Under the pieces are notes generated by a model. It was not told the DNA's origin. It did not search any database and saw only the letters and a list, made by a program, of their open reading frames with translations. A stretch of DNA of 64,000 bases from a bacterium (lineage in GTDB: Bacteria > Margulisbacteria > Marinamargulisbacteria > UBA817 > JAQBTH01), in contig JAQBTH010000001.1 of the NCBI GenBank assembly GCA_027623425.1, positions 1,485-65,484 on the forward strand, written 5' to 3'. Every line of letters starts with the position of its first letter. The stretch's first letter is position 1. The position numbers and the translations under genes are program-made. Of the stretch, positions 4,015-47,462 are shown in pieces.

Positions 4015-4803
4015 ATGAAAAAGCCAAAACAAAAACTTGGGAAGATTATTAGAGACGCAGGGGAAATATTTAACGTTTCCTCAGCGGCCAAAGTATTGGA
4101 TGTCCCTAATACAGAGGCTGCTAAGATACTGGCGCGATGGACAAAACAGGGTTGGTTAACTCGTATTCAGCGAGGTTTATATGCCGTTGTCCCTATTGAA
4201 GCCTCTACAACAAATCAGGCACTTGAAGATGCATGGATTCTTGCACCGGAGCTTTTTGCACCTTGTTATATAGGAGGATGGTCTGCTGCAGAACATTGGG
4301 ATTATACGGAGCAAATATTTAGAGATATTTGTGTGATAACAGAGCGTGTTGTAGCGACTAAAAAGAAAGAGGTACACGGTATTAAATTCATAGTGACTCG
4401 AATAAAGAATGCGCTGGATTTTGGTACCAAAACTTTGTGGCGCCAAGATAAGAAAATCCTAATTTCTGACCCCCACAAAACTATTATTGATATGATGGTT
4501 AACCCCGAACTTGGCGGTGGCATTCAGCATACTATGGAATGTTTCTCTGCCTATCTTGAAAGCACGCACTTTGACCCTGATAAATTAGCTGATTATGCAG
4601 AAAAACTAAGTAATGGCGCTGTATATAAACGACTAGGTTATTTATGTGAAAGAAAATTGGGGGATACACACCTACTAACGAAAATCTGCAAATCAAATCT
4701 TAGCAAAGGTAATGCGTACCTAGACCCTAATATAAAGAATGGGGCTCTAATTTCACGTTGGCGGTTATTTGTGCCTGTTAATATTAGGGATAGTAATAAG
4801 TGA
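4015..4803 (+). CDS. AbiEi-like antitoxin / transcriptional regulator (type IV TA / abortive-infection family)
   Basis: N-terminal wHTH-like segment with the RGLYAVVP motif characteristic of the AbiEi_4 domain; stop codon overlaps the GTG start of the downstream nucleotidyltransferase (GTGA). Confidence 0.6.
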   Translation: MKKPKQKLGKIIRDAGEIFNVSSAAKVLDVPNTEAAKILARWTKQGWLTRIQRGLYAVVPIEASTTNQALEDAWILAPELFAPCYIGGWSAAEHWDYTEQIFRDICVITERVVATKKKEVHGIKFIVTRIKNALDFGTKTLWRQDKKILISDPHKTIIDMMVNPELGGGIQHTMECFSAYLESTHFDPDKLADYAEKLSNGAVYKRLGYLCERKLGDTHLLTKICKSNLSKGNAYLDPNIKNGALISRWRLFVPVNIRDSNK

Positions 4804-6074
4804 TTCCAAAACGAGAAATTCTTGAAATTGCCACTAACAGCAACCTTACGCCTCATGTCATAGAAAAGGATTATGTGCTGGGGTGGATGCTTGAAGGTAT
4901 CCACAATCATGCAGAACTCAAAGAATCATGGGCATTCAAAGGTGGAACATGTCTTAAAAAATGTTACTTTGAAACATATCGTTTCTCAGAAGACCTGGAT
5001 TTTACACTTACTGATAAATCCCATATCAATGAAAAGTTTCTAAAAGGTGTTTTTGCAGAAATAAGTGACTGGGTTTATGAATCTTCTGGCGTAGAGATTC
5101 CAGTTGATAGAATGATTTTTGAAATTTGCGAGAATCCCAGAGGCGTGATGTCATGTCAGGGAAGGCTGTTTTATCGAGGCCCAAACGCACCACAATCAAA
5201 TAAACAAATGCCACGTATAAAACTTGATCTGTCAGTAGATGAAGTAATTGTAGCAACTCCTGTTATTAACCTGGTTAGCCATTCCTACAGTGATCTTACA
5301 GAAGACGGCTTCCATATACGATGCTATTCATACGAAGAGGTCTTCGCAGAAAAAATTAGGGCACTAGGTGAAAGGACGCGCCCCAGAGATTTGTACGACG
5401 TTATAAATTTCTACCGCAGGCCAGAATCAGAAGAAAGATCGCCTGCAGTAAACAATATTTTACAGCAGAAATGTAAGTTTAAAGATATTAAAATTCCAAC
5501 ATATGCCGCCTTGGAAAAACATAGAGAAGATTGTGCTTCTGGTTGGCAACAAAAGTTGAGTCCCCAACTACAAGCACTTCCTCCTTTTGAATCGTACTGG
5601 GATGAGTTGCCTGGCTTCCTTGAATGGCTAAATAGTCCTGAATCAGTCGCGCCAAGAACACGCGAAATTATTCCATCAAAACCTGGGACCATTGTTGACA
5701 ACACGCCTATTGATTTAAGGAGTCTTGATAGTGGTACTTCACAGTTAAGCTTACTTAACAGGATTCGTTTTGCTGCCGCTAACCACCTATGTGTTGAGTT
5801 GGTTTATCGTAAGGAAGATGGAGAACAAAATACCTATATCATTGAGCCCTACTCATTAAGGCGGACATCAGATAATAACTTGTTACTATACTCAATGAAG
5901 CATGGCACTGCAGACGATGGAAGGCCCCGTGCATTCAGGACAGATCGTATTATAAGCGCGAAAGCCACAGATAAAACCTTTACGCCAAAATATATGGTCG
6001 AATTTTTACCCTCCTGCCCTGTAAACACCAGTATGCCTGTATCCAGCGGTAAAAAAAGTTTAGGGCTAACCTAA
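4800..6074 (+). CDS. AbiEii/AbiGii-family nucleotidyltransferase toxin (DUF1814) fused to a C-terminal WYL-like domain
   Basis: GTG start; motifs FKGGTCL, SEDLDF and RPRDLYD (NTase motifs I-III); C-terminal ~120 aa with Y..EDGE…IIEPYSL…LLLYSMK…RAFRTDRI pattern typical of WYL domains. Confidence 0.75.
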   Translation: MIPKREILEIATNSNLTPHVIEKDYVLGWMLEGIHNHAELKESWAFKGGTCLKKCYFETYRFSEDLDFTLTDKSHINEKFLKGVFAEISDWVYESSGVEIPVDRMIFEICENPRGVMSCQGRLFYRGPNAPQSNKQMPRIKLDLSVDEVIVATPVINLVSHSYSDLTEDGFHIRCYSYEEVFAEKIRALGERTRPRDLYDVINFYRRPESEERSPAVNNILQQKCKFKDIKIPTYAALEKHREDCASGWQQKLSPQLQALPPFESYWDELPGFLEWLNSPESVAPRTREIIPSKPGTIVDNTPIDLRSLDSGTSQLSLLNRIRFAAANHLCVELVYRKEDGEQNTYIIEPYSLRRTSDNNLLLYSMKHGTADDGRPRAFRTDRIISAKATDKTFTPKYMVEFLPSCPVNTSMPVSSGKKSLGLT

Positions 6075-6259: not shown

Positions 6260-7495
6260 TTAAACTCTTCTAAAAATTAATACCGCGTTATGCCCACCAA
6301 ACCCAAATGAGTTCGACATAACCGAATTCACTTTCATTTCACGCGCCACATTTGGCACATAATCCAAATCACAGTCTGGGTCTTTATGCTCGTAATTAAT
6401 CGTAGGCGGCACAACTTGGTTCTGCAGGACTTGCACAGCGGCTACCGCTTCAATTGCGCCTGCAGCGCCTAACAAATGGCCTGTCATTGATTTTGTAGAG
6501 CTAACCGCAAATTTATAAGCATGATCGCCAAATACAGCTTTCATCGCGGCCGTTTCATTTTTATCATTTAATTTAGTAGAGGTACCATGGGCATTCACAT
6601 AATCCACATCCACAGTGTTCATCTGCGCATCTTCAAGAGCCGCTTTCATCGCACGCTGAGCGCCTTCACCTTCTGGTGCAGGAGCTGTTAAATGGTACGC
6701 ATCACCTGAACTACCATATCCCACCAATTCAGCCAAAATAGTGGCGCCACGTTTTTTGGCGGATTCATACTCTTCTAAAATAACGATGCCAGCACCTTCA
6801 CCCATTACGAACCCATCTCGCTCACCATCAAAGGGGCGACATGCATGCATAATGTCATCATTACGCTGCGACAACGAGCGCGCCGCACAAAAACTGCCCA
6901 ACCCCACAGGAGTCACGCAGGATTCTGCACCACCCGCAATCATCGCATCTGCTTGACCACGTTCAATAATTTTAGCGGCATTACCAATGGCATGCGTTGA
7001 TGACGCACAGGCCGTAACAGTGGCAGAATTCGGGCCTTTAGCACCCGTTTTCATCGACACCATTCCCGTGGCCATATCAGCAATCATCATTGGCACCGTA
7101 AATGGGCTCATTTTAGAAGGACCGCGCTCAGCCAATGTGATGCACGCTTCTTCTAATATTTCCAATCCGCCAATACCGGATCCAATTTCCACCCCAATGC
7201 GATTGGCATTTGCTTCCACATCATAGCCAGAATCTTCTAGAGCCTGACGGGCAGCAATAACAGCCAACATCACAAACTTCGACGTACGACGCGCTTCCTT
7301 TTTATCAAAATGATCCTCATAATTCAGACCCTTAATTTGCGCAGCAAAACGGGTTGAAAACTCAGTCACATCAAAATGTTCCACTGGTGCAACACCCGAA
7401 CGCCCAGTCATTAAACCTTCCCAATAGTCAGCAGGATTTAATCCGAGCGGATTTACAGTCCCCACACCAGTGATGACAACGCGTCGCTTAGTCAC
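6260..7495 (-). CDS. fabF: 3-oxoacyl-ACP synthase II
   Basis: 411 aa, KAS II motifs (active-site Cys region …TACASSTHAIG…, HGTSTKLND, GHLLGAAG); last gene of the fab operon. Confidence 0.95.
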   Translation of the reverse strand: MTKRRVVITGVGTVNPLGLNPADYWEGLMTGRSGVAPVEHFDVTEFSTRFAAQIKGLNYEDHFDKKEARRTSKFVMLAVIAARQALEDSGYDVEANANRIGVEIGSGIGGLEILEEACITLAERGPSKMSPFTVPMMIADMATGMVSMKTGAKGPNSATVTACASSTHAIGNAAKIIERGQADAMIAGGAESCVTPVGLGSFCAARSLSQRNDDIMHACRPFDGERDGFVMGEGAGIVILEEYESAKKRGATILAELVGYGSSGDAYHLTAPAPEGEGAQRAMKAALEDAQMNTVDVDYVNAHGTSTKLNDKNETAAMKAVFGDHAYKFAVSSTKSMTGHLLGAAGAIEAVAAVQVLQNQVVPPTINYEHKDPDCDLDYVPNVAREMKVNSVMSNSFGFGGHNAVLIFRRV

Positions 7496-7504
7496 GATTC
7501 GAAA

Positions 7505-7756
7505 TTACTCTGAAACGTTTTTAAGGATGTAATCTACAGTCAAACCAACTGTTGTTAGCTTTTCTGCATCTTCATCAGCGATTTCCGTGCCAAACTCTTC
7601 TTCTAAAGCCATAACTAGCTCTACTGTATCAAGAGAATCTGCACCAAGATCCTCTGTAAATGATGCGTTTTCGCTTACATCGTCTTCAGATACACCTAAC
7701 TGCTCTACAACTACACCTTTTACTTTTTCTAATACTTGTTCTTTACTAAGTGACAT
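7505..7756 (-). CDS. acpP: Acyl carrier protein
   Basis: 83 aa with the [20 protein letters not shown] phosphopantetheine-attachment motif. Confidence 0.95.
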
Positions 7757-7777
7757 AATTTGTTCCTCCTTGAGTTT

Positions 7778-8512
7778 TTACATTAAAAGTCCGCCATCAA
7801 TCGTTAACACCTGACCAGTCATATACTGAGACTGATCCGACGCTAAGAAGGAAACTAGGTTCGCAATGTCAGACACTTGACCCAATCGCCTTAATGGCAC
7901 ACTTTCAATTATAGTATTAAGGTACTGCTCAGGTAAAGACTCAATCATATCTGTCTCAATAAATCCAGGGGCAACCACATTTGCCAGTATACCTTTTGGG
8001 CCATATTCCTTTGCAAGAGACTTGGTAAATGCAATCGCACCCGCCTTAGAAGCCGCATAATTGGCCTGCCCTGGGTTACCCATTTGACCCACAACAGATG
8101 AAATCGTGATAATACGTCCAGCACGCTGTTTTAGCATCGGACGAAGCACTGCTTTGGAACAATAGAATACCGAATTTAAATTTGTGGTGATGACCGATTG
8201 CCAATCTTCAGCGCTCATACGAAGCAACAAATTGTCGCGAGTAATCCCTGCATTATTGACCAATACATCCACACGACCGAAAGCAGCCATAGTGGCATCT
8301 ACCATCGCCTTAACAGACGCTTCATCAGAAACATCCACCCCCACGCCCAACGTTTTAACACCGTATTCAGCGGCTAAACGGGTTGCCACTTCTTTAGATT
8401 TTTCTTCTTTAGTTGAACTCACCACAATAGTGGCGCCAGCCGCAGCCAAACCTTCGGCAATCGCAAGGCCAATTCCACGACTCGATCCAGTTACAATAAT
8501 CACCTTATCCAT
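7778..8512 (-). CDS. fabG: 3-oxoacyl-ACP reductase
   Basis: 244-aa SDR with TGSSRGIG and NNAG motifs; sits between fabD and acpP. Confidence 0.9.
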   Translation of the reverse strand: MDKVIIVTGSSRGIGLAIAEGLAAAGATIVVSSTKEEKSKEVATRLAAEYGVKTLGVGVDVSDEASVKAMVDATMAAFGRVDVLVNNAGITRDNLLLRMSAEDWQSVITTNLNSVFYCSKAVLRPMLKQRAGRIITISSVVGQMGNPGQANYAASKAGAIAFTKSLAKEYGPKGILANVVAPGFIETDMIESLPEQYLNTIIESVPLRRLGQVSDIANLVSFLASDQSQYMTGQVLTIDGGLLM

Positions 8513-8518
8513 ATATTT

Positions 8519-9433
8519 TTATACCTCCAATTTTTCTAAAAACACATCACTGTTCATAGAATCACATTCAATTTCAGGGGCAATTTTTTTAATTAGCGCG
8601 CCCAACACCTTACCTGGCCCAAATTCAGTAATACGCGTTACCTCACCAGATATCGATTGAATGGATTGTGTCCAACGCACTGGCGATTTTACTTGTTCTG
8701 GCAAATTCGCTTTTAGCGCCGCCGCAGAGGTCTCTTTTTGAGCCGTACGATTAAGAACGATAGGTATACGTGCATCATGAAAATCAATCCCTTCAATAAA
8801 GGCTGCCAACCCTTCAGCGGCACCTGCCATCTGTTCCGTATGAAACGCCCCACCGACTTTAAGTGGCACAACACGTTTCGCACCCGCCTTACTAAGCGCT
8901 TCTCCGGCAGCAAAAACACCGTCTTTAGTACCAGATATAACCGTTTGAATGGGTGCGTTATAATTGGCGATTACAGCACCGTCTATAGGCGCAATAACAG
9001 ATTCAATTTTAGCGGCATCCATACCTAAAATAGCTGACATCGCACCAGGTTGATTTACCGCTGCCTGACGCATCAATGACCCACGCTTATCAACCACCTT
9101 TAGCGCTGAATCAAAATCCAACACTCCGGCCACATAATAGGCCGTTAATTCGCCCAAACTATGCCCTGCTAAAAATGCGGGATTCAATGGTGTGCGCTCA
9201 TTCACCAATTCATACAGCGCCGCCGAAATCACAAATATACCCAATTGCGCGTTATCTGTTTGAACTAATTCATCTTCAGGCCCTTCGAAACAAATCCGTT
9301 TTATGTCTCGGCCTGATACCTCGCTTGCCCGATCAAAATACGCATTAACGCGAGATTCTGCCGCCGCTAATTCTTTTCCCATCCCCACAAATTGAGACCC
9401 CTGCCCTGCAAATACAATTCCTAATCCACTCAT
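8519..9433 (-). CDS. fabD: Malonyl-CoA:ACP transacylase
   Basis: 304 aa, GQGSQ and GHSLGE motifs. Confidence 0.9.
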   Translation of the reverse strand: MSGLGIVFAGQGSQFVGMGKELAAAESRVNAYFDRASEVSGRDIKRICFEGPEDELVQTDNAQLGIFVISAALYELVNERTPLNPAFLAGHSLGELTAYYVAGVLDFDSALKVVDKRGSLMRQAAVNQPGAMSAILGMDAAKIESVIAPIDGAVIANYNAPIQTVISGTKDGVFAAGEALSKAGAKRVVPLKVGGAFHTEQMAGAAEGLAAFIEGIDFHDARIPIVLNRTAQKETSAAALKANLPEQVKSPVRWTQSIQSISGEVTRITEFGPGKVLGALIKKIAPEIECDSMNSDVFLEKLEV

Positions 9434-9446
9434 TGTTATATCTCCT

Positions 9447-25522: not shown

Positions 25523-26740
25523 TTATGCGTCTTCTCCTCGGGCAACAATAACTGAAGCCACAGCATCACTATAAACATTCACCGTCGTCCTAAACACATC
25601 CAACACGCGATCCACTGCAAGAATTAGCATAATGCCTTCTAGCGGCAAGCCAACAGTGTTGAAAATAATGGCCATGGTAATGAGACCGGCACTTGGAATC
25701 GCAGCAGCACCCACAGATGCTAAGGTAGCAGTAACCACGATAATTACCATTTGAGTCATACTTAAATGCACACCATAGACTTGCGCGATAAATACAGACG
25801 CAACTGCCTGATAAAGAGCTGTTCCATCCATATTAATAGTGGCACCTAAGGGGCAAACAAAACTAACCACTTTATCGGGAATACGAAGCTTCTTTTTCAA
25901 ACAATCCATGGTTAAGGGCAATGTGGCGATACTGGAACTCGTTGAAAAGGCAGTTCCAAATGCGGGCAACATACTTTTCAAAAATTGAAGAGGAGAAAAT
26001 CGGCCAAACACCACCAAATAGGTAGGCAAAACAACAAACGCGTGAATCGCCAAACCCACTAACACAACGGTAACGTACAAGGCCAATGGCTTGAAGGCTT
26101 CTCGACCCGTTAATCCAACCAAGGAAGCAATGAGTGCAAACACACCGATGGGTGCTAAACGCATAATCCAATCCACCATTTTAAGAACAGCTTCATTCAT
26201 ACTATCCACAACATTAATCATGGTTTCCGCTCGCTTGCCAATAGCAATGAGCGCCATTCCTAAAATTAGCGCAAAGAAAATAACAGGTAAAATCTGCCCT
26301 GCTGCCATTGCGCCAGCAATATTAGACGGTACGATTTCAGTAACGAGCATTGCCAATGAGGTGGGCTCAGATGTGGCAACAGCCGTCGCGTTACTCGTAG
26401 AAGAACGTAATAACTCAAGATTTGCACCTCGACCTGGCTGAACCAACAACGTTAAAACAATACCAATTGTTGCGGCAATCACCGTTGTTGTAACAAAGAT
26501 TAAAGCCGTTTTGACACCCATTTTTCCAAGGTGCTTAATATCACCTAAGCCAACAACACCCATAATAATAGAGGTGAGAACTAGGGGCACAATAAGCATT
26601 TTTAAAAGCCGTAAAAACAGCTCCCCGATTGGAACTAGCATTGCCGCATCTTCTTTTAAGTAAATACCTGCAGCAATACCCAGTAATATCCCCAATAAAA
26701 TTTGAGTGTTTAGCTTTTTAAACAACGTAAGGGCCTCCAT
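25523..26740 (-). CDS. Dicarboxylate/amino acid:cation symporter (DAACS/GltP family)
   Basis: 405 aa, ~8-10 TM segments, conserved C-terminal …VNVYSDAVA… region. Confidence 0.85.
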   Translation of the reverse strand: MEALTLFKKLNTQILLGILLGIAAGIYLKEDAAMLVPIGELFLRLLKMLIVPLVLTSIIMGVVGLGDIKHLGKMGVKTALIFVTTTVIAATIGIVLTLLVQPGRGANLELLRSSTSNATAVATSEPTSLAMLVTEIVPSNIAGAMAAGQILPVIFFALILGMALIAIGKRAETMINVVDSMNEAVLKMVDWIMRLAPIGVFALIASLVGLTGREAFKPLALYVTVVLVGLAIHAFVVLPTYLVVFGRFSPLQFLKSMLPAFGTAFSTSSSIATLPLTMDCLKKKLRIPDKVVSFVCPLGATINMDGTALYQAVASVFIAQVYGVHLSMTQMVIIVVTATLASVGAAAIPSAGLITMAIIFNTVGLPLEGIMLILAVDRVLDVFRTTVNVYSDAVASVIVARGEDA

Positions 26741-33093: not shown

Positions 33094-33286
33094 TTAGCAA
33101 CTACGACAAAAGCAGTGAGTTTACACCCACTGCGATTATCATTAACAAAAAGCCTGCCCTTAAACTTTCATACTAAATTTATCGATCAGAACATAAAATT
33201 CTTAAAGTCGCTAAATTTCTAATGTCCACACCTCTTGGTACCCATCAGTTGCAGCATTAAAACCACCCATCACCCAAATTTTGCCC

Positions 33287-34487
33287 TCAAACGAGGCACA
33301 AGACATCATCGATCGGCCAACCCACTGGGGAACCCGTCACTTGTAACTGCGTCCACGTGGCCCCATCAGAGGAATACCATACGTCAGGATGATACACATC
33401 TTCGGGGGTATTTTCTTCTCCACCAATCATCCAAATTTTACCCTCATGCACTAAGGTACAATGGGAACTACGTTCAGACCAGATGTCTCCGGTTATAGGC
33501 ACAACGTTCCAGTTTGCGCCATCCGACGTATTCCACACATCATTGGCCGAATTACCATCACCCAAATACCCACCAATAATCCACATTTTATTATTAAATA
33601 CAATCGCATCCATATATGCTCGGCGAGACCAATGATGCACAGACTGCTCTATTTCAGACCAATTCGTACCATCTGTGGAGCTAAACACATCATAATCATA
33701 GTCACCAAAATCTTCATCTGCACCACCCATAATCCATAACTTATCTTTAAATACCGCCGATGCCGCATAATTCCGTGATGTAAAACCCGCATTATCCGTT
33801 GCCTGAACCCAAGTAATACCATCTTCGCTATACCACACATCGTTTAATTTATTATCCGCAGCATCATCGCCTGCAAATAACCACAATTTGTCATTAAATA
33901 CCTGCAACTCAAAATCATCGCGTTTTGAAAAATTAGCCGAAGACGTTAGCTCCGTCCAAGTCGTACCATCAGTTTTATAGACATCGTTATACAACGCAGA
34001 TTCATCCCCTTGACCGCCCACGATATAAAGTTCATTATTGAACACCGCGGCAGCAAACCCTTGCCGTCCCGCCCAAGGTGGTGTTGTTTCTTGCTTCCAT
34101 TGTGCAGACGTCACGTTCGCTACAAAAGTTGTGGTTATGGTCTCATCCAATATAGCCGTCGCCGTAATGGTCACAGAACCTGTCGCAATACCACTAATTA
34201 CACCAGACCCACTTATAGAGGCCAATGCAGAATCATCTAAGGAGTATGTAACCGCTTGTTGAAGCACCGGCAGGTAAAGCCGAAACACTCAACGAACGCC
34301 CCAAACCAATAAATACATTTTGTGTACTTGCAGAAACGGAAATACTAGTTGGCGGAGTTAATGAATCCGAACTACTGCTACTTGAATCATCGTTAGACGA
34401 GATAAGCGACCCACAACCTGTTACCACGCCTAAAACCAACATAATACATAAGACAATGCCTTGTTTTAATTTATTCAAAAACCCCAA
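33287..34487 (-). pseudogene. Kelch-like beta-propeller lipoprotein with an N-terminal Big_2-like domain, interrupted by a frameshift (pieces 34233-34487 and 33287-34288 overlap at 34233-34288)
   Basis: The upstream piece has lipobox VTGC plus the first half of the Big_2 domain; the downstream piece continues the Big_2 domain (…VTYSLDDSALASISGSGVISGIATGSVTITATA…) and then the Kelch repeats; a paralog is intact. Confidence 0.6.
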
Positions 34488-42273: not shown

Positions 42274-42661
42274 TGGTGGAGGTGAGGGGATTTGAACCCC
42301 TGTCCAAAAGAGCCCACACAAAGGCGCTACGAGTGTAGTTTGTGAGAAAAGATTCCCCAGATGATTATCCACAAACAGATTCCCAAATAGGTATTACTCA
42401 GTGAAAGTTTCGCGTCTACCGCTGAATACGCCAGTAGTTGCTAGTTGACTAAGTGACGCCAGATCCGACTACATCAACGATAATCGGGTGACGATTGCTA
42501 ACCTAAATTAGGCAGCAAGTAGTTCAGTTTGTTTACCAAACTGAGCTGTAAGAATTTGAGCATTGTCAATTCTTGTTGTTATGCCTTTTAACGTGGCCTG
42601 GCATCTCCACGACTCGCTCCTCAGCGTAAAGTCTTCTTTTGTCGAAACCAAAAACACCCCC
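42274..42661 (-). ncRNA. ssrA: tmRNA (SsrA)
   Basis: 5' end GGGGGTGTTTTTGGTTTCGACAAAAG…, 3' tRNA-like end …CAGGGGTTCAAATCCCCTCACCTCCACCA; internal tag ORF ending …AQFGKQTELLAA-TAA (stop at 42508-42510). Confidence 0.9.
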
Positions 42662-43266
42662 AAAGGTGATTTTGCAAAGAAAATTTGCAATATCAAAGAA
42701 CCACTAATGTAACGTTAGCACAGTATAAAAAGTTACAATTTAAGTCAAGCGAAAGAGCATTTTAAGAAAATAGACCCCAGCCAGAAAAGAAGCCAGGAGC
42801 AGGGTCTGCAAGCACCCCCTCATCACCACAATCATCCCCCGCTACAATAAAGGATTTCCCTGTTCGAATTATGGGTCGTTGAAATCTTAATACAACGTCA
42901 CGAGTATCTCCAACACCATTCTCTGTAGCAGACCCGCCAATCCCAAGTTCAGCCCAACTCCACCCCATAACGTCTGAGTAGCACCCTAGTTATCATCTGT
43001 AACAGCACGCCATTTTCGAACTACAGGCATACAATTTAAAGCCAATGGGTTCAGTTTCCAAGCAATCACATCGTCTAGCCCACAACACTGACCCGCAAGT
43101 CGTTTAAACATATACTATCTCATAAATTTTAAACATTATTACTTAAATTATATATAAATATGATGAAATAATCGAACAGTAAAAAATGTGACATTTAATC
43201 ACAAAAATGCTATTCTAGTTGCGCTATTCCAGAAAATAAACCAGACACAACAATAAGGAGTTTATC

Positions 43267-44577
43267 ATGGCCCAACGCGGCATACTTGAGTACGATGCAA
43301 AGTCATTAGTAACACGTCTTTGGAACGATTATATTGGCGACTCACTAATCTGCAATTTTCGCAGCGTATTAGTGGAAACGGAAGATGAATTAGACACCGC
43401 AGCAAAAGCCCAAGACTGGCTCAATCAGCCTGGCTTAGTCGTAAAACCCGACATGCTATTTGGAAAACGCGGCAAAAACAACCTTGTGTTATACAAAACA
43501 ACCACAGCCGGAGACGTATCATTGGCCGATGCAAAAAAATGGATACACGAAAAACGCATCAACGAAATCGCCTTATTAAATGGTGAAAAAGGCTGGTTGC
43601 GTCGGTTCATTATAGAGCCGTTTGTGCCCCACTCTATAGAGCAAGAGTACTACATTAGTTTTAGAAGCGAAACAGAAAACGATGTCATGGCAATATCAGC
43701 CTGTGGCGGCGTGGATATTGAAGAAAATTGGGACACCGTTACCGAAGTATTCATACCTGTATTAAGCGAAGATAAAGAAGCTAAGAATCTAATTTTGTCT
43801 CAAATTCCAGATGAAATCCAAGAACGCAATGCCGTTGGCACGCTCGCCGTTGGTCTTTACAGTTTATTTAAAGACCTACATTTCGCCTACCTCGAATTAA
43901 ACCCATTTGTCATAGAAGGCAATACCATTCATTTATTAGATATGGTCGCCAAATTAGATGATACCGCTGGCTATTTAATGCAAGAAGAATGGCAAGGCAT
44001 CGAGTTTCCGTCTGGCTTTGGGCGCGCAGGCTTAACAAAAGAAGAGAAATTCATTACAGAACTAGACGAAAAATCAGGTGCCAGTTTAAAACTAACCATC
44101 CTTAACCCAAAAGGCGTCGTATGGACATTAGTAGCAGGTGGCGGCGCATCCGTTGTATTTGCGGACACGATTGCCAACACATGGGGAGCAAATGAGCTGG
44201 CTAATTACGGCGAGTATTCTGGCAACCCCAACACCGAAGAAACCTACTACTACACAAAAACAGTTCTAGACTTAATGACCAGAGAAAAAGACGATAAAGG
44301 CCGCAACAAAATTCTACTTATTGGTGGCGCCATCGCAAACTTCACTGATGTCGCAAGCACCTTTAAAGGCATCATTCAGGCCATGGAAGAATACGCCCCT
44401 AAAATGCGCGAAATTGGCGTGCAAATTTATGTACGTCGCGGTGGGCCTAACTATGAAATTGGCCTTCGTAACATTAAAACAGCCGCCAAGAAATTAAAGC
44501 TACCCATTGATGTATACGGACCAGAAACCCATATGACTGATATCGTCGCAATTGCGATGGAAGACGCCAACGCCTAG
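43267..44577 (+). CDS. aclB: ATP-citrate lyase, beta/small subunit (ATP-grasp)
   Basis: Strong similarity to the ACLY N-terminal part: …LDEKSGASLKLTILNPKGVVWTLVAGGGASVVFADTI…NELANYGEYSG…LMTREK…IGGAIANFTDVASTFKGI…YVRRGGPNY…. Confidence 0.9.
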   Translation: MAQRGILEYDAKSLVTRLWNDYIGDSLICNFRSVLVETEDELDTAAKAQDWLNQPGLVVKPDMLFGKRGKNNLVLYKTTTAGDVSLADAKKWIHEKRINEIALLNGEKGWLRRFIIEPFVPHSIEQEYYISFRSETENDVMAISACGGVDIEENWDTVTEVFIPVLSEDKEAKNLILSQIPDEIQERNAVGTLAVGLYSLFKDLHFAYLELNPFVIEGNTIHLLDMVAKLDDTAGYLMQEEWQGIEFPSGFGRAGLTKEEKFITELDEKSGASLKLTILNPKGVVWTLVAGGGASVVFADTIANTWGANELANYGEYSGNPNTEETYYYTKTVLDLMTREKDDKGRNKILLIGGAIANFTDVASTFKGIIQAMEEYAPKMREIGVQIYVRRGGPNYEIGLRNIKTAAKKLKLPIDVYGPETHMTDIVAIAMEDANA

Positions 44578-44592
44578 GCAAAGGAGACTAAA

Positions 44593-46452
44593 ATGAGCGC
44601 ATTATTTACACCTGATAGCAAAGCAATATTTTGGAACAATAACGTAAAAGCAATTCAACGCATGTTGGATTATGGCTATATATGCCGACGCGAAAGCCCA
44701 TCAGTTGTGGCCATCGTTCACCCAAGCAGCCAATCCAGTGTTCAAAAGTTTTTCTATGGCCCCCATGAAGTATTAATTCCCATATATAAAACCATTTCAG
44801 ATGCGGCAGAAGCCCATCCAGAAGCGGATTGCTTCTTAAACTTTGCATCATTCCGCACCGCATGGGAAACCACCATGAAAGCCATGGAATTTAATAACAT
44901 CAAAACCTTAATGGTAACCGCTGAAGGCATACCAGAACGACTAACCCGTATTATGGTCGCCACAGCACGTAAAAAAGGCAAGATGCTGGTGGGTCCCTCA
45001 ACAGTAGGCGCCATCACTCCTGGTGCGTTGAAAACAGGAAATATCGGCGGCACGATCGAAAATATTGCCAAAACAAAACTACACCGCCCAGGATCTGCTG
45101 GGCTGGTTACAAAATCCGGTGGGTTATTTAACGAACTCGCCAACATCATTTCAATCAATGGCGATGGCATTGCAGAAGGTGTTGCCGTTGGTGGTGATCG
45201 CTACCCTGGTTCTATTTTCATTGACCATTTATTACGCATGGAGAAAAACCCAACAGTTAAATATTTTGTACTTTTAGGTGAAGTAGGCGGAACGGATGAA
45301 TATGATGTTGTTGAGGCATACAAAGAAGGAAAACTAACAAAACCAATCGTGGCGCTATGCACAGGTACTGTTGCCAAACACTTATCTAGCGGCGTTCAGT
45401 TTGGGCACGCTGGGGCAAAAGCCAACTCCGATTTGGAAACCGCTGATGCAAAAAACAAGGCAATGAAAGACGCAGGCTTCAATGTACCTGACAACTTCAA
45501 TGAGTTCCCAGTGATGATCAAAGACACCTACGAAGACTTAGTGGCTAAAAACCAAGTAAGCGCCGAAGAAATTAGTGATCTTCCTGAAATTCCTGAAGAT
45601 TATTCCGCGGCTAAAAAAGAAGGCCGAGTGCGCAAACAAACCAACTTCATATGCACGATTTCCGATGACCGAGGCGATGAAGCCGTATACGCAGGTGTAC
45701 CAATTTCATCATTAGCCACGCCAGAAACAGGCTACGGAATTGGCGATGTCATTACCCTACTTTGGTTTAAAAAGCGCTATCCAAAATGGGCAACTGATTT
45801 TATTGAAACTGTACTTAAAACCGTTGCAGACCACGGCCCAGCAGTATCTGGCGCTCACAACACTCGCGTCACTAGCCGTGCCGGAAAAGACCTAGTTAGC
45901 TCAGTGGTAACCGGGTTACTGGCAATCGGCCCGCGCTTTGGTGGTGCCATTGATGGTGCTGCTAAATATTTCAAATATGGCGCCGACCAGCAATTATCGG
46001 CACGCGGATTTGTAAATTACATGAAAGAAAAAGGCGAACCAATTCCCGGGATCGGCCATCGTATTAAATCGTTGAAAAATCCAGATCTTCGCGTGAAAGC
46101 ATTAATTGAATACGCAAAGGCGAACTTTCCATCTACCGACCTGTTGGATTATGCCCGCGAGATTGAACAAGTCACCACCAGCAAAAAAGACACATTGATT
46201 TTAAACGTCGATGGCGCCGTTGGTGTGTTACTAGTAGACATGTGGAACGCACTTGGGTACTCCGATGCTGAAATTGACCAAATGATCGATTCTGGGGCGT
46301 TAAACGCATTCTTTGTTCTTGGGCGCACCATTGGGTTCATTGGCCACGCTTTGGACGAGAAACGATTAAATATGCCGCTCTATCGTCATGAATTGGATGA
46401 CATTCTGTATGATGTGGATGTCGCCGAAGAAATGACGGTTAGAGTAAAGTAA
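44593..46452 (+). CDS. aclA: ATP-citrate lyase, alpha/large subunit (CoA-binding, phosphohistidine, citryl-CoA lyase domain)
   Basis: 619 aa; GHAGAKAN phosphohistidine loop; C-terminal citrate-synthase-like domain; AAGGAG SD; 15 nt after aclB. Confidence 0.9.
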   Translation: MSALFTPDSKAIFWNNNVKAIQRMLDYGYICRRESPSVVAIVHPSSQSSVQKFFYGPHEVLIPIYKTISDAAEAHPEADCFLNFASFRTAWETTMKAMEFNNIKTLMVTAEGIPERLTRIMVATARKKGKMLVGPSTVGAITPGALKTGNIGGTIENIAKTKLHRPGSAGLVTKSGGLFNELANIISINGDGIAEGVAVGGDRYPGSIFIDHLLRMEKNPTVKYFVLLGEVGGTDEYDVVEAYKEGKLTKPIVALCTGTVAKHLSSGVQFGHAGAKANSDLETADAKNKAMKDAGFNVPDNFNEFPVMIKDTYEDLVAKNQVSAEEISDLPEIPEDYSAAKKEGRVRKQTNFICTISDDRGDEAVYAGVPISSLATPETGYGIGDVITLLWFKKRYPKWATDFIETVLKTVADHGPAVSGAHNTRVTSRAGKDLVSSVVTGLLAIGPRFGGAIDGAAKYFKYGADQQLSARGFVNYMKEKGEPIPGIGHRIKSLKNPDLRVKALIEYAKANFPSTDLLDYAREIEQVTTSKKDTLILNVDGAVGVLLVDMWNALGYSDAEIDQMIDSGALNAFFVLGRTIGFIGHALDEKRLNMPLYRHELDDILYDVDVAEEMTVRVK

Positions 46453-46500: not shown

Positions 46501-46528
46501 GGCGGTATGACACTATTATCGTACCGCC
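46501..46528 (+). terminator. Hairpin GGCGGTATGA-cactatta-TCGTACCGCC ~50 nt after the aclA stop (no U-tract)
   Basis: 10-bp stem with one G:U pair. Confidence 0.35.
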
Positions 46529-46649: not shown

Positions 46650-47462
46650 GTGGACGGCGATCACAGAAAAACACTAAACATCATACGCAACCCCTTACCT
46701 AGACACGATCATGCGCAATTCTATCCTATTTACACCTGGTACACATGCCCCACTGCACCACAAGACTGCGTACTTTCCCAAGAATCCGAACAAGAACAAA
46801 GCGCGCTTAGACGAGCTGATTTCAACGGGCAAAAGTTCTATCGAACTGGCATTTATCTTGTAATATCCGTTCCCGCATATGCTAGCGCCAGCGCCAATAG
46901 TGTAGGAAATATTGACGAGTACAAAGGCGATATCAGTGAGCAACCAAGACAGATTATCTGCGACGAAGTTCTATTAGCCCGCCATATCGAAAGCCCAAAC
47001 GTCATCTATTTCGCATACTACAACCCTTATTTTCAAAATATACTAACACAACGTCACCCAATACCTACACTGGACTATATTCAAGCCAATAAAGAAACAT
47101 GGAACACACCCTTCAGAGAATTACCAACAGAAACACAAGCACTTAGTCTATTGGCGGATTCCGTGAATAACCATATCGTAAGCCTAAATTTTAAGCACCT
47201 CGCAGTACGCACAGATGAATCCAGCAGACTAACAACTTATGTGCGCGACTCCCTTAGATTCGATGTTCCTAACTCTGGATTATACAATGTTCGCCCCATA
47301 CCTCCTGAAACAGAACCTCCTCCAGCAGAAGAAACGAAACCATCACCAACACACCCCTCGCATCAACATAATTACCGATACGCAGTCAAAAAATGGGAAG
47401 CCTTCAAGGCACAAGAACGCCGCATGGCTTTACTGAGACAAGCGCCACAAACATGTGTATAA
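46650..47462 (+). CDS. Hypothetical protein (270 aa) with a Pro-rich C-terminus
   Basis: ORF only. Confidence 0.5.
   Translation: MDGDHRKTLNIIRNPLPRHDHAQFYPIYTWYTCPTAPQDCVLSQESEQEQSALRRADFNGQKFYRTGIYLVISVPAYASASANSVGNIDEYKGDISEQPRQIICDEVLLARHIESPNVIYFAYYNPYFQNILTQRHPIPTLDYIQANKETWNTPFRELPTETQALSLLADSVNNHIVSLNFKHLAVRTDESSRLTTYVRDSLRFDVPNSGLYNVRPIPPETEPPPAEETKPSPTHPSHQHNYRYAVKKWEAFKAQERRMALLRQAPQTCV

Follow-up and report, generated by a model that had tools for sequence, protein, structure and literature searches.

The 64,000-nucleotide stretch of bacterial DNA analyzed here (positions 1,485 to 65,484 of contig JAQBTH010000001.1, assembly GCA_027623425.1; hereafter called the window) carries an adjacent pair of genes, aclB and aclA, which by every sequence criterion encode an intact, catalytically competent heteromeric ATP-citrate lyase (ACL; EC 2.3.3.8). 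The operon's host, a member of the Marinamargulisbacteria (phylum Margulisbacteria), is related to the Cyanobacteria and inhabits marine or brackish water. An initial annotation of the window had described a genuine and intact ACL outside the phyla classically associated with the rTCA (reductive tricarboxylic acid) cycle, and the domains, the residues and the host lineage reported below bear this out. We see about an even chance that the pair represents a catalytically competent, long vertically inherited ACL that cleaves citrate outside an autotrophic rTCA cycle.

The aclB gene occupies positions 43267 to 44577 of the forward strand and encodes the beta subunit of 436 amino acids (aa) with ATP-grasp and citrate-binding domains, and aclA follows at positions 44593 to 46452 (+), encoding the 619-aa alpha subunit with CoA-ligase domains and a C-terminal citryl-CoA-lyase module. 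The initial annotation had placed both genes at these coordinates as intact open reading frames (ORFs) with strong Shine-Dalgarno sequences, and so they were found, with AAGGAG lying 6 nucleotides (nt) 5' of each ATG (43255 to 43260 for aclB and 44581 to 44586 for aclA, both +). The two genes are co-oriented and are separated by only 15 nt, a gap that indicates an operon. The same adjacent aclB-aclA order with a short spacer was observed in nearly all of the more than 80 related loci.

In Pfam searches, AclB matched the ACL-specific ATP-grasp family PF24948 (Citrate_synth_N; E value of 1.4e-64) and PF16114 (Citrate_bind; 4.1e-81), and AclA matched PF00549 (Ligase_CoA) and PF00285 (Citrate_synt), the latter over residues 390 to 598. 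NCBIfam returned only sub-threshold matches, to models of succinyl-CoA ligase, citryl-CoA lyase and citrate synthase, as is expected for an ACL. Among solved structures the top match was the archaeal ACLY-A/B of Methanothrix concilii (6HXI; 1.5e-126 for AclB and 5.9e-219 for AclA), which shares the heteromeric architecture and all of the catalytic residues (6HXI and 6ZNW) but is only 54% (AclA) and 51% (AclB) identical to the window proteins. Human ACLY structures matched at 5e-104 (AclB) and 1.4e-212 (AclA), the Chlorobium limicola ACL structure much more weakly (9.3e-40 and 8.1e-128), and the citryl-CoA synthetase and citryl-CoA lyase (CCS/CCL) of Hydrogenobacter most weakly of all (6HXQ and 6HXP; 1.5e-11, 1.1e-25 and 1.6e-17). 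A two-enzyme citrate cleavage system of the Hydrogenobacter type (CcsAB plus Ccl) was therefore rejected, since the lyase is fused to AclA and the matches to 6HXQ and 6HXP are far weaker than those to true ACLs.

The sequence blocks listed in the initial annotation (GASLKLT, NYGEYSG, GGAIANFT, VRRGGPNY and GHAGAKAN) were all recovered. Upon alignment with human ACLY, AclA His272, within GHAGA, corresponded to the phosphohistidine H760 and Glu111 to E599, while in the lyase module His414 corresponded to H900, His489 and Arg490 to H975 and R976, and Asp540 to D1026. In AclB the equivalents of human G309, N346, T348 and R379 were conserved at about G319, N358, T360 and R391. We take these human positions to be the catalytic and citrate-binding sites described in the ACLY structural literature, and D1026 is the position changed to alanine in 6ZNW; every such residue that was compared is conserved. 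By homology to the solved ACLs, AclB would bind ATP and citrate, AclA would be phosphorylated at His272, and citryl-CoA would be made; cleavage of citryl-CoA to acetyl-CoA and oxaloacetate would fall to the citrate-synthase-like module at the C terminus (Asp540, His414 and His489). The enzyme itself is an ordinary ACL of a known type.

The same annotation had called the enzyme eukaryote-like, a description that did not survive comparison with bacterial ACLs. AclA is 67 to 76% identical to its Marinamargulis relatives (the closest named one, from Marinamargulisbacteria AG-439-L15, at 76%), 64 to 68% identical to the enzymes of Campylobacterota (Nautiliaceae, Nitratiruptor, Sulfuricurvum and others) and 64 to 67% identical to those of Chlamydiae metagenome-assembled genomes (MAGs), as against 53% for the corresponding part of human ACLY. 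Clustering of a sequence library at 50% identity placed the window AclA in one cluster with the Campylobacterota enzymes (representative P0081). The next cluster representatives were the fused ACLYs of the fungus Paraphysoderma and of a dinoflagellate (49 to 52%), which branch outside the bacterial crown group, followed by archaeal enzymes at about 43%. The human enzyme shares the chemistry and all of the residues listed above but consists of one fused chain that includes a linker, whereas the window has two unfused genes, and two separate subunits are the norm in prokaryotes. A eukaryotic-type or specially eukaryote-like ACLY was rejected on the basis of the unfused genes and the bacterial identity and clustering; on these comparisons the window ACL resembles eukaryotic ACLY only as all ACLs do. 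The likeness to Campylobacterota AclBA (Nitratiruptor, Caminibacter/Nautiliaceae and Sulfuricurvum), by contrast, extends to the aclB-aclA operon, the protein lengths and the domain order, with AclB 53 to 60% identical.

The identity of the host was examined with the window FtsK (MDA1352889.1). A search with its conserved C-terminal half gave organism-named matches to Candidatus Marinamargulisbacteria or Margulisiibacteriota, with the exception of one evident mis-binning. These matches included the single-cell amplified genomes (SAGs) AG-439-L15, AAA071-K20 and AG-410-N11 as well as several MAGs, at 64 to 68% identity. The sample may come from the Caspian Sea, as suggested by the record prefix MEHR18 and by a possible link of SAMN03444961 to PRJNA279271, a Caspian Sea BioProject.

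Several lines of evidence point to long vertical descent of ACL within each Marinamargulis sublineage. In the Saanich Inlet MAG SI072_bin188 (loci L002 and L088), eight genes around ACL occur in the order seen in the window (UPF0182, NTP_transf_4, aclB, aclA, epimerase, homoserine dehydrogenase, FtsK and RluA) at 51 to 71% identity, and the identities of the ACL genes themselves (60% and 71%) are commensurate with those of their flanks. In the window and L002 alike, a tmRNA gene is situated between NTP_transf_4 and aclB. A second group of Marinamargulisbacteria, deeply diverged, has AAA071-K20, L008, L078 and P0406 as members and includes the genome with an 810-kb contig. It carries ACL at another locus, which is itself conserved over 12 to 13 genes, with flank identities down to 24 to 66%. 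The gene order there is RlmN, LOG-like, ExbB, ExbD, TonB, two unnamed genes, aclB, aclA, holB, in some cases a HIT gene, S21, LptFG, TPR, two further unnamed genes and Lnt. The composition of the window ACL region is also normal, with a GC content of 0.456 against 0.438 for the window and a third-position GC content of 0.42 to 0.43 against 0.407 ± 0.047 for the window ORFs. The L002 synteny, the conserved locus of the second group and the normal composition together are what suggest that the inheritance has been vertical for a long time.

Bootstrapped neighbor-joining trees with simple distances were computed for AclA alone (99 sequences) and for concatenated AclB and AclA (28 taxa, with M. 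concilii as the outgroup). The Campylobacterota formed a clade with 100% bootstrap support, and all Marinamargulis and Chlamydiae sequences fell outside it. The Chlamydiae clade was likewise supported at 100%, the AAA071 group at 54 to 77%, and the window clade (the window, SI072_bin188, AG-439-L15 and metagenome sequences) together with locus L090 at 73 to 90%. A grouping of the window clade with the Campylobacterota was supported at 74% with AclA and at 40 to 49% in the concatenated trees. A monophyletic group of all Marinamargulis ACLs was not recovered in these trees (0 to 2% of bootstraps), and the alternative groupings were also weak (40 to 74%). The initial annotation had left it to a phylogeny of AclA and AclB to decide whether the genes were inherited vertically or acquired, and the answer is divided: vertical descent is supported within each Marinamargulis sublineage, but the deep branching order has less than 50% support. 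Since one ACL subfamily is spread across three unrelated phyla, being common to Marinamargulisbacteria, Campylobacterota and some Chlamydiae, it was probably transferred between phyla in ancient times.

A quite different account would make the locus foreign to the organism, either as a recently transferred island or as a mis-binned or chimeric Campylobacterota fragment. The 64 to 68% identity to Campylobacterota ACL, the tmRNA gene just upstream (tmRNA genes being common integration sites for islands) and the implausible taxonomic labels of several public MAGs with this type of ACL could be read in that way, and the "accessory genes" that the initial annotation placed beside ACL could be taken as a hint of acquisition. 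That hint is lost, as the locus including the tmRNA gene is syntenic with L002 and its composition is normal. Because the tmRNA neighborhood is conserved in L002, with the tmRNA gene upstream of aclB and both flanks retained, ACL is not island cargo. The mis-binned contig fares no better, since the FtsK and the flanks are of the Marinamargulis type and the ACL lies outside the fully supported Campylobacterota clade. Furthermore, the 64-kb sequence is also present in independent assemblies (an NCBI contig of 65,971 bp, scaffolds of assembly ERZ23495043 in the European Nucleotide Archive [ENA], and a Logan contig). We regard an artefact of either kind as effectively refuted.

Some of the public labels deserve comment in their own right. 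Loci L008 (CAZIFG010000001.1, "uncultured Rickettsiales") and L078 (PBBE01000005.1, "Actinomycetota" SP4294) share 12 to 13 syntenic genes with the ACL locus of AAA071-K20 (L010), so their NCBI labels are almost certainly wrong. Locus L014 ("Bacteroidales"), with a Nautiliaceae-type ACL, and locus L074 ("Pseudomonadota"), with a Sulfuricurvum-type ACL, are probably mis-binned contigs. The AclA P0032 ("[Caminibacter pacificus]") and the FtsK P0127, which is 68% identical to that of the window, both have a longest contig of 34,378 bp; this is either a coincidence or a case of a Marinamargulis-like FtsK beside a Nautiliaceae-type ACL on one contig. At the tmRNA site, the gene lies on opposite strands in the window (42274 to 42661, −) and in L002 (4016 to 4401, +), and its neighbors differ, being a 319-aa protein of unknown function and a Big_2 protein in the window and LTXXQ, two unknown proteins and coproporphyrinogen oxidase in L002, a pattern that suggests local inversion and turnover of cargo. 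The tmRNA gene adjoining aclBA, as reported in the initial annotation, is thus real.

Next, we considered whether the lineage also has a conventional route to citrate. The window AclA is deposited as MDA1352885.1 ("MAG: ATP citrate synthase [bacterium]"), and a citrate synthase (P0476; MDA1354166.1, "MAG: citrate synthase [bacterium]") follows 1,281 accession numbers later. It is encoded on scaffold_5898 of the same ENA assembly as the window. The scaffold has a GC content of 0.458 and a tetranucleotide correlation with the window of 0.92, compared with 0.75 to 0.86 for the loci of other organisms. A canonical citrate synthase is therefore very probably present in the window's own MAG. In three relatives the two enzymes clearly co-occur: L090, the sister of the window clade, has a stand-alone citrate synthase 3 kb from aclBA whose best named relatives are Marinamargulis citrate synthases and whose matches include P0476; SI072_bin188 has citrate synthase MBT5855229 and AclA MBT5856091 in one MAG; and a single contig of 810,696 bp carries citrate synthase MBT5954012 and AclA MBT5954269. 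Where citrate synthase coexists with ACL, the latter is not needed for making citrate. The possibility that ACL is the sole citrate-forming enzyme is accordingly weakened, both by MDA1354166.1 with its shared assembly and accession block and by the pairs in the relatives.

The metabolic background was taken from published reconstructions. Marinamargulisbacteria have been described as aerobic heterotrophs with Na+-translocating NADH:quinone oxidoreductase (NQR), alternative complex III and an A-type (aa3-type) oxidase that "lack CO2 fixation pathways" (Matheus Carnevali et al. 2019, PMC6349859), and acetyl-CoA is obtainable in these relatives from acetate and via beta-oxidation. In the KEGG orthology (KO) table of that study, the E1 component of pyruvate dehydrogenase (PDH) and 2-oxoglutarate dehydrogenase (OGDH) are present in all three of the SAGs AA1A, AG2A and AG3B, and the subunits of pyruvate:ferredoxin oxidoreductase (PFOR) are absent from all three. 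KorAB, the 2-oxoglutarate:ferredoxin oxidoreductase (OGOR), is absent from AA1A and AG2A and present in AG3B (PMC6349859). The suggestion in the initial annotation that ACL may have a role other than the rTCA cycle gains plausibility from these relatives with PDH and OGDH and without PFOR. Supplementary Data 2 of the same study lists neither of the ACL KOs (K15230 and K15231), which left ACL unassessed in the published reconstruction, and AAA071-K20 (the AA1A of that study, 82% complete) nevertheless carries aclBA. For AA1A the table gives citrate synthase (K01647) as "#N/A", although the text of the paper credits it with every enzyme in the tricarboxylic acid (TCA) cycle. In the 64-kb window, neither OGOR, nor PFOR, nor fumarate reductase and the remaining enzymes of the rTCA cycle were found, and no rTCA partner genes were present within 10 kb of ACL in any Marinamargulis locus examined.

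A precedent exists in the Chlamydiae family MCF-D, in which AclA and AclB related to epsilonproteobacterial and Aquificae enzymes occur in genomes without PFOR and OGOR (Koestlbacher et al. 2021, PMC8242063). These enzymes belong to the same ACL subfamily as the window enzyme, and they are found in non-autotrophs and are stably syntenic within their lineage. The phylum is different, as is the neighborhood (NUDIX-aclBA-MFS-Pyr_redox-Na/H exchanger), and the Chlamydiae live obligately inside cells. ACL in non-autotrophic bacteria is therefore already published (PMC8242063), and the window ACL is not a new kind of system.

We infer that ACL runs in the cleavage direction from the citrate synthase very probably encoded in the same genome and from the aerobic heterotrophy of relatives that possess PDH and OGDH and lack PFOR. 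In such a non-autotrophic setting, ACL would turn citrate into oxaloacetate and acetyl-CoA, the latter for use in, for example, type II fatty acid synthesis (FAS-II), and the citrate would be either imported or formed by reductive carboxylation of amino-acid-derived 2-oxoglutarate via isocitrate dehydrogenase and aconitase. The supply of acetyl-CoA from citrate is also the role of the cytosolic, lipogenic human ACLY, to which the role proposed here would be analogous. Several points weigh against citrate cleavage by a vertically inherited ACL. The citrate synthase is assigned to the MAG by its accession block, by the assembly that it shares with the window and by composition, and physical linkage is absent; the trees are neighbor-joining trees on simple distances with deep nodes below 50% support; and no citrate transporter was seen in the 64-kb window. 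Given PDH, it is not obvious why ACL would be needed as a source of acetyl-CoA, and the presence of ACL without a detected citrate synthase in AAA071-K20 would fit a citrate-forming role there. A more elaborate proposal, rather unlikely as a whole, is that ACL and citrate synthase form a switchable citrate node in aerobic, possibly protist-associated heterotrophs. The upper branch of the TCA cycle would be run reductively, amino-acid- or host-derived 2-oxoglutarate or citrate would be converted to acetyl-CoA and oxaloacetate, and the module would have passed in ancient times among bacteria associated with eukaryotes (Marinamargulisbacteria and Chlamydiae) and the stem of the Campylobacterota. 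If true, the lipogenic ACLY route of eukaryotes would have a bacterial equivalent in this node.

Citrate cleavage outside the rTCA cycle has a specific version in which the bacterium resides inside a eukaryote or on its surface, imports citrate from the host cytosol and uses ACL in the eukaryotic manner, to make acetyl-CoA for lipids. We give this a small but real chance of being right. The aclBA-bearing AAA071-K20, termed "bacterial symbiont contigs", came from a heterotrophic protist cell that had been sorted, the Marinamargulisbacterium Ruthmannia eludens is intracellular in Trichoplax, and Chlamydiae, which are obligately intracellular, have an ACL of the same subfamily beside an MFS transporter and RING/ankyrin effector-like genes (in the Chlamydiae-like MAG L093, three RING-plus-ankyrin proteins at 12076 to 16396). 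Ankyrin-repeat genes flank ACL in SI072_bin188 (two proteins in L088, at 15608 to 16462 and 17773 to 18603), and the window has a Kelch-repeat gene (33211 to 34288, −) and a FAS-II cluster (plsX-fabH-fabD-fabG-acpP-fabF, 6260 to 11437), the latter as noted in the initial annotation. Ankyrin and Kelch repeats, however, are not specific to symbionts, and the MAG and its closest relatives derive from water-column metagenomes. The heading of the initial annotation had the bacterium as apparently host-associated, but the window itself contains no sign of a host. A citrate transporter was not identified, the only candidate carrier in the window being a symporter of the SDF family for dicarboxylates or amino acids (25523 to 26740), 17 kb from ACL. 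The supplementary tables for Ruthmannia, the one proven intracellular member, list citrate synthase and hold no "citrate lyase" or "ATP-citrate" annotation, and the window enzyme is no closer to eukaryotic ACLY than are other bacterial ACLs.

Two further explanations would assign ACL to a different cycle or direction. A complete or facultative rTCA cycle, serving autotrophic or mixotrophic CO2 fixation in, for example, low-oxygen water, is what the standing of ACL as a standard rTCA marker would suggest, and the relatives of this ACL in the chemolithoautotrophic Campylobacterota are rTCA enzymes. Relatives of the window organism are found in the Saanich Inlet oxygen-minimum zone, and SAG AG3B has KorAB. 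The window host, in contrast to the Campylobacterota, is of the aerobic heterotroph type and has no rTCA partner genes near ACL, and neither do the other Marinamargulis loci examined. Together with the undetected PFOR in the three SAGs, the absence of KorAB from the ACL-bearing AA1A, the co-occurrence of citrate synthase with ACL, and the presence of OGDH, PDH, aa3-type oxidase and NQR in genomes whose authors conclude that there is no CO2 fixation pathway (PMC6349859), this makes CO2 fixation improbable. The other explanation runs ACL in reverse, as an ATP-conserving citrate synthase of the oxidative TCA cycle (acetyl-CoA + oxaloacetate + ADP + Pi → citrate + ATP + CoA), and arises from AAA071-K20, which has aclBA and an oxidative TCA cycle that is near-complete apart from the undetected K01647, so that reverse ACL might replace citrate synthase. 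A high supply of acetyl-CoA, from acetate and from beta-oxidation in the relatives, would favor the citrate-forming direction. In Desulfobacter postgatei ACL is run oxidatively with a gain of ATP, according to the citation of Moeller et al. 1987 in PMC9768450. That organism, likened to the window lineage by role and not by sequence, shares a non-autotrophic TCA setting and sets a precedent for reversibility, but it is a strict anaerobe in which ACL replaces citrate synthase, whereas the window lineage has both. The presence of citrate synthase, very probable in the MAG and clear in the three relatives, means that ACL is not required for citrate formation, and AAA071-K20 is only 82% complete. 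We are aware of no aerobic bacterium in which ACL was demonstrated to act in reverse as a citrate synthase, and we give this explanation only a slim chance.

ACL is routinely used as an rTCA marker gene in metagenomic surveys of dark carbon fixation. As the window and its relatives show, a clade that is sibling to the Cyanobacteria, widespread in marine and brackish waters and published as heterotrophic in background has both a bona fide ACL and citrate synthase. Given ACL in Marinamargulisbacteria described as heterotrophs, as in some Chlamydiae, counts of rTCA autotrophs based on this marker can be inflated. Within the library of papers searched, none took up ACL in Margulisbacteria or Marinamargulisbacteria, although GenBank carries annotations of the genes. 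The locus also flags a gap in the published Marinamargulisbacteria reconstruction, where the ACL KOs are missing from the table and a representative genome has no detected citrate synthase, and it offers a tractable case for the role of ACL in an aerobic heterotroph, be it biosynthetic citrate cleavage, a redox valve or ATP-conserving citrate synthesis.

The surroundings of the operon were also inspected for regulatory features. A candidate sigma-70-like promoter in the AT-rich spacer 5' of aclB (GTGACA and TATTCT separated by 17 nt, with TG; 43188 to 43216, +) is weak and is given as a lead only, as 10 promoter-like sites were counted in the region compared with 11.2 ± 3.8 in shuffled sequences, i.e., no excess. 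An inverted repeat (GGCGGTA...TACCGCC; 46501 to 46528, +) begins 49 nt past the aclA stop codon and may be a stem-loop at the end of the operon; it is not followed by a T-tract and was not called by the terminator scan. Neither the promoter scan nor the terminator scan performed better than on shuffles. An Rfam search of the whole window at the gathering threshold found no regulatory RNA 5' of aclB, its only matches being RNase P RNA, tmRNA and four tRNAs. Between aclA and the epimerase gene lies a GTG-start ORF of 270 aa (46650 to 47462, +) with a proline-rich tail and no Pfam match. The syntenic L002 lacks it there, the epimerase gene being directly 3' of aclA.

With a GC content of 43.8%, the window is only moderately low in GC, not "low-GC" as it had been labeled. 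Its other genes include those for a diderm envelope (LptC-like), GAPDH and PGK. An AbiEi/AbiEii pair (4015 to 6074, +), a toxin-antitoxin or abortive-infection system of the nucleotidyltransferase type, adjoins the RNase HII gene.

Finally, a family of AclA homologs of about 1000 to 1040 aa was observed outside the window (P0004, P0006 to P0011, P0013 to P0015, P0018, P0019 and P0241, on contigs of up to 102 kb). These proteins have an internal partial tandem duplication, in which a full AclA is followed by a second copy of residues from about 168 to 619. In copy 1 of P0006 the phosphohistidine motif FGHAGA is kept and the lyase motifs are degenerate (ADRDPQASGATN and GIGHCTYS), while in copy 2 the histidine motif is degenerate and the lyase motifs are intact (ADHGPAVSGAHN, GIGHRVKS and LILNVDG), a division that looks like subfunctionalization.

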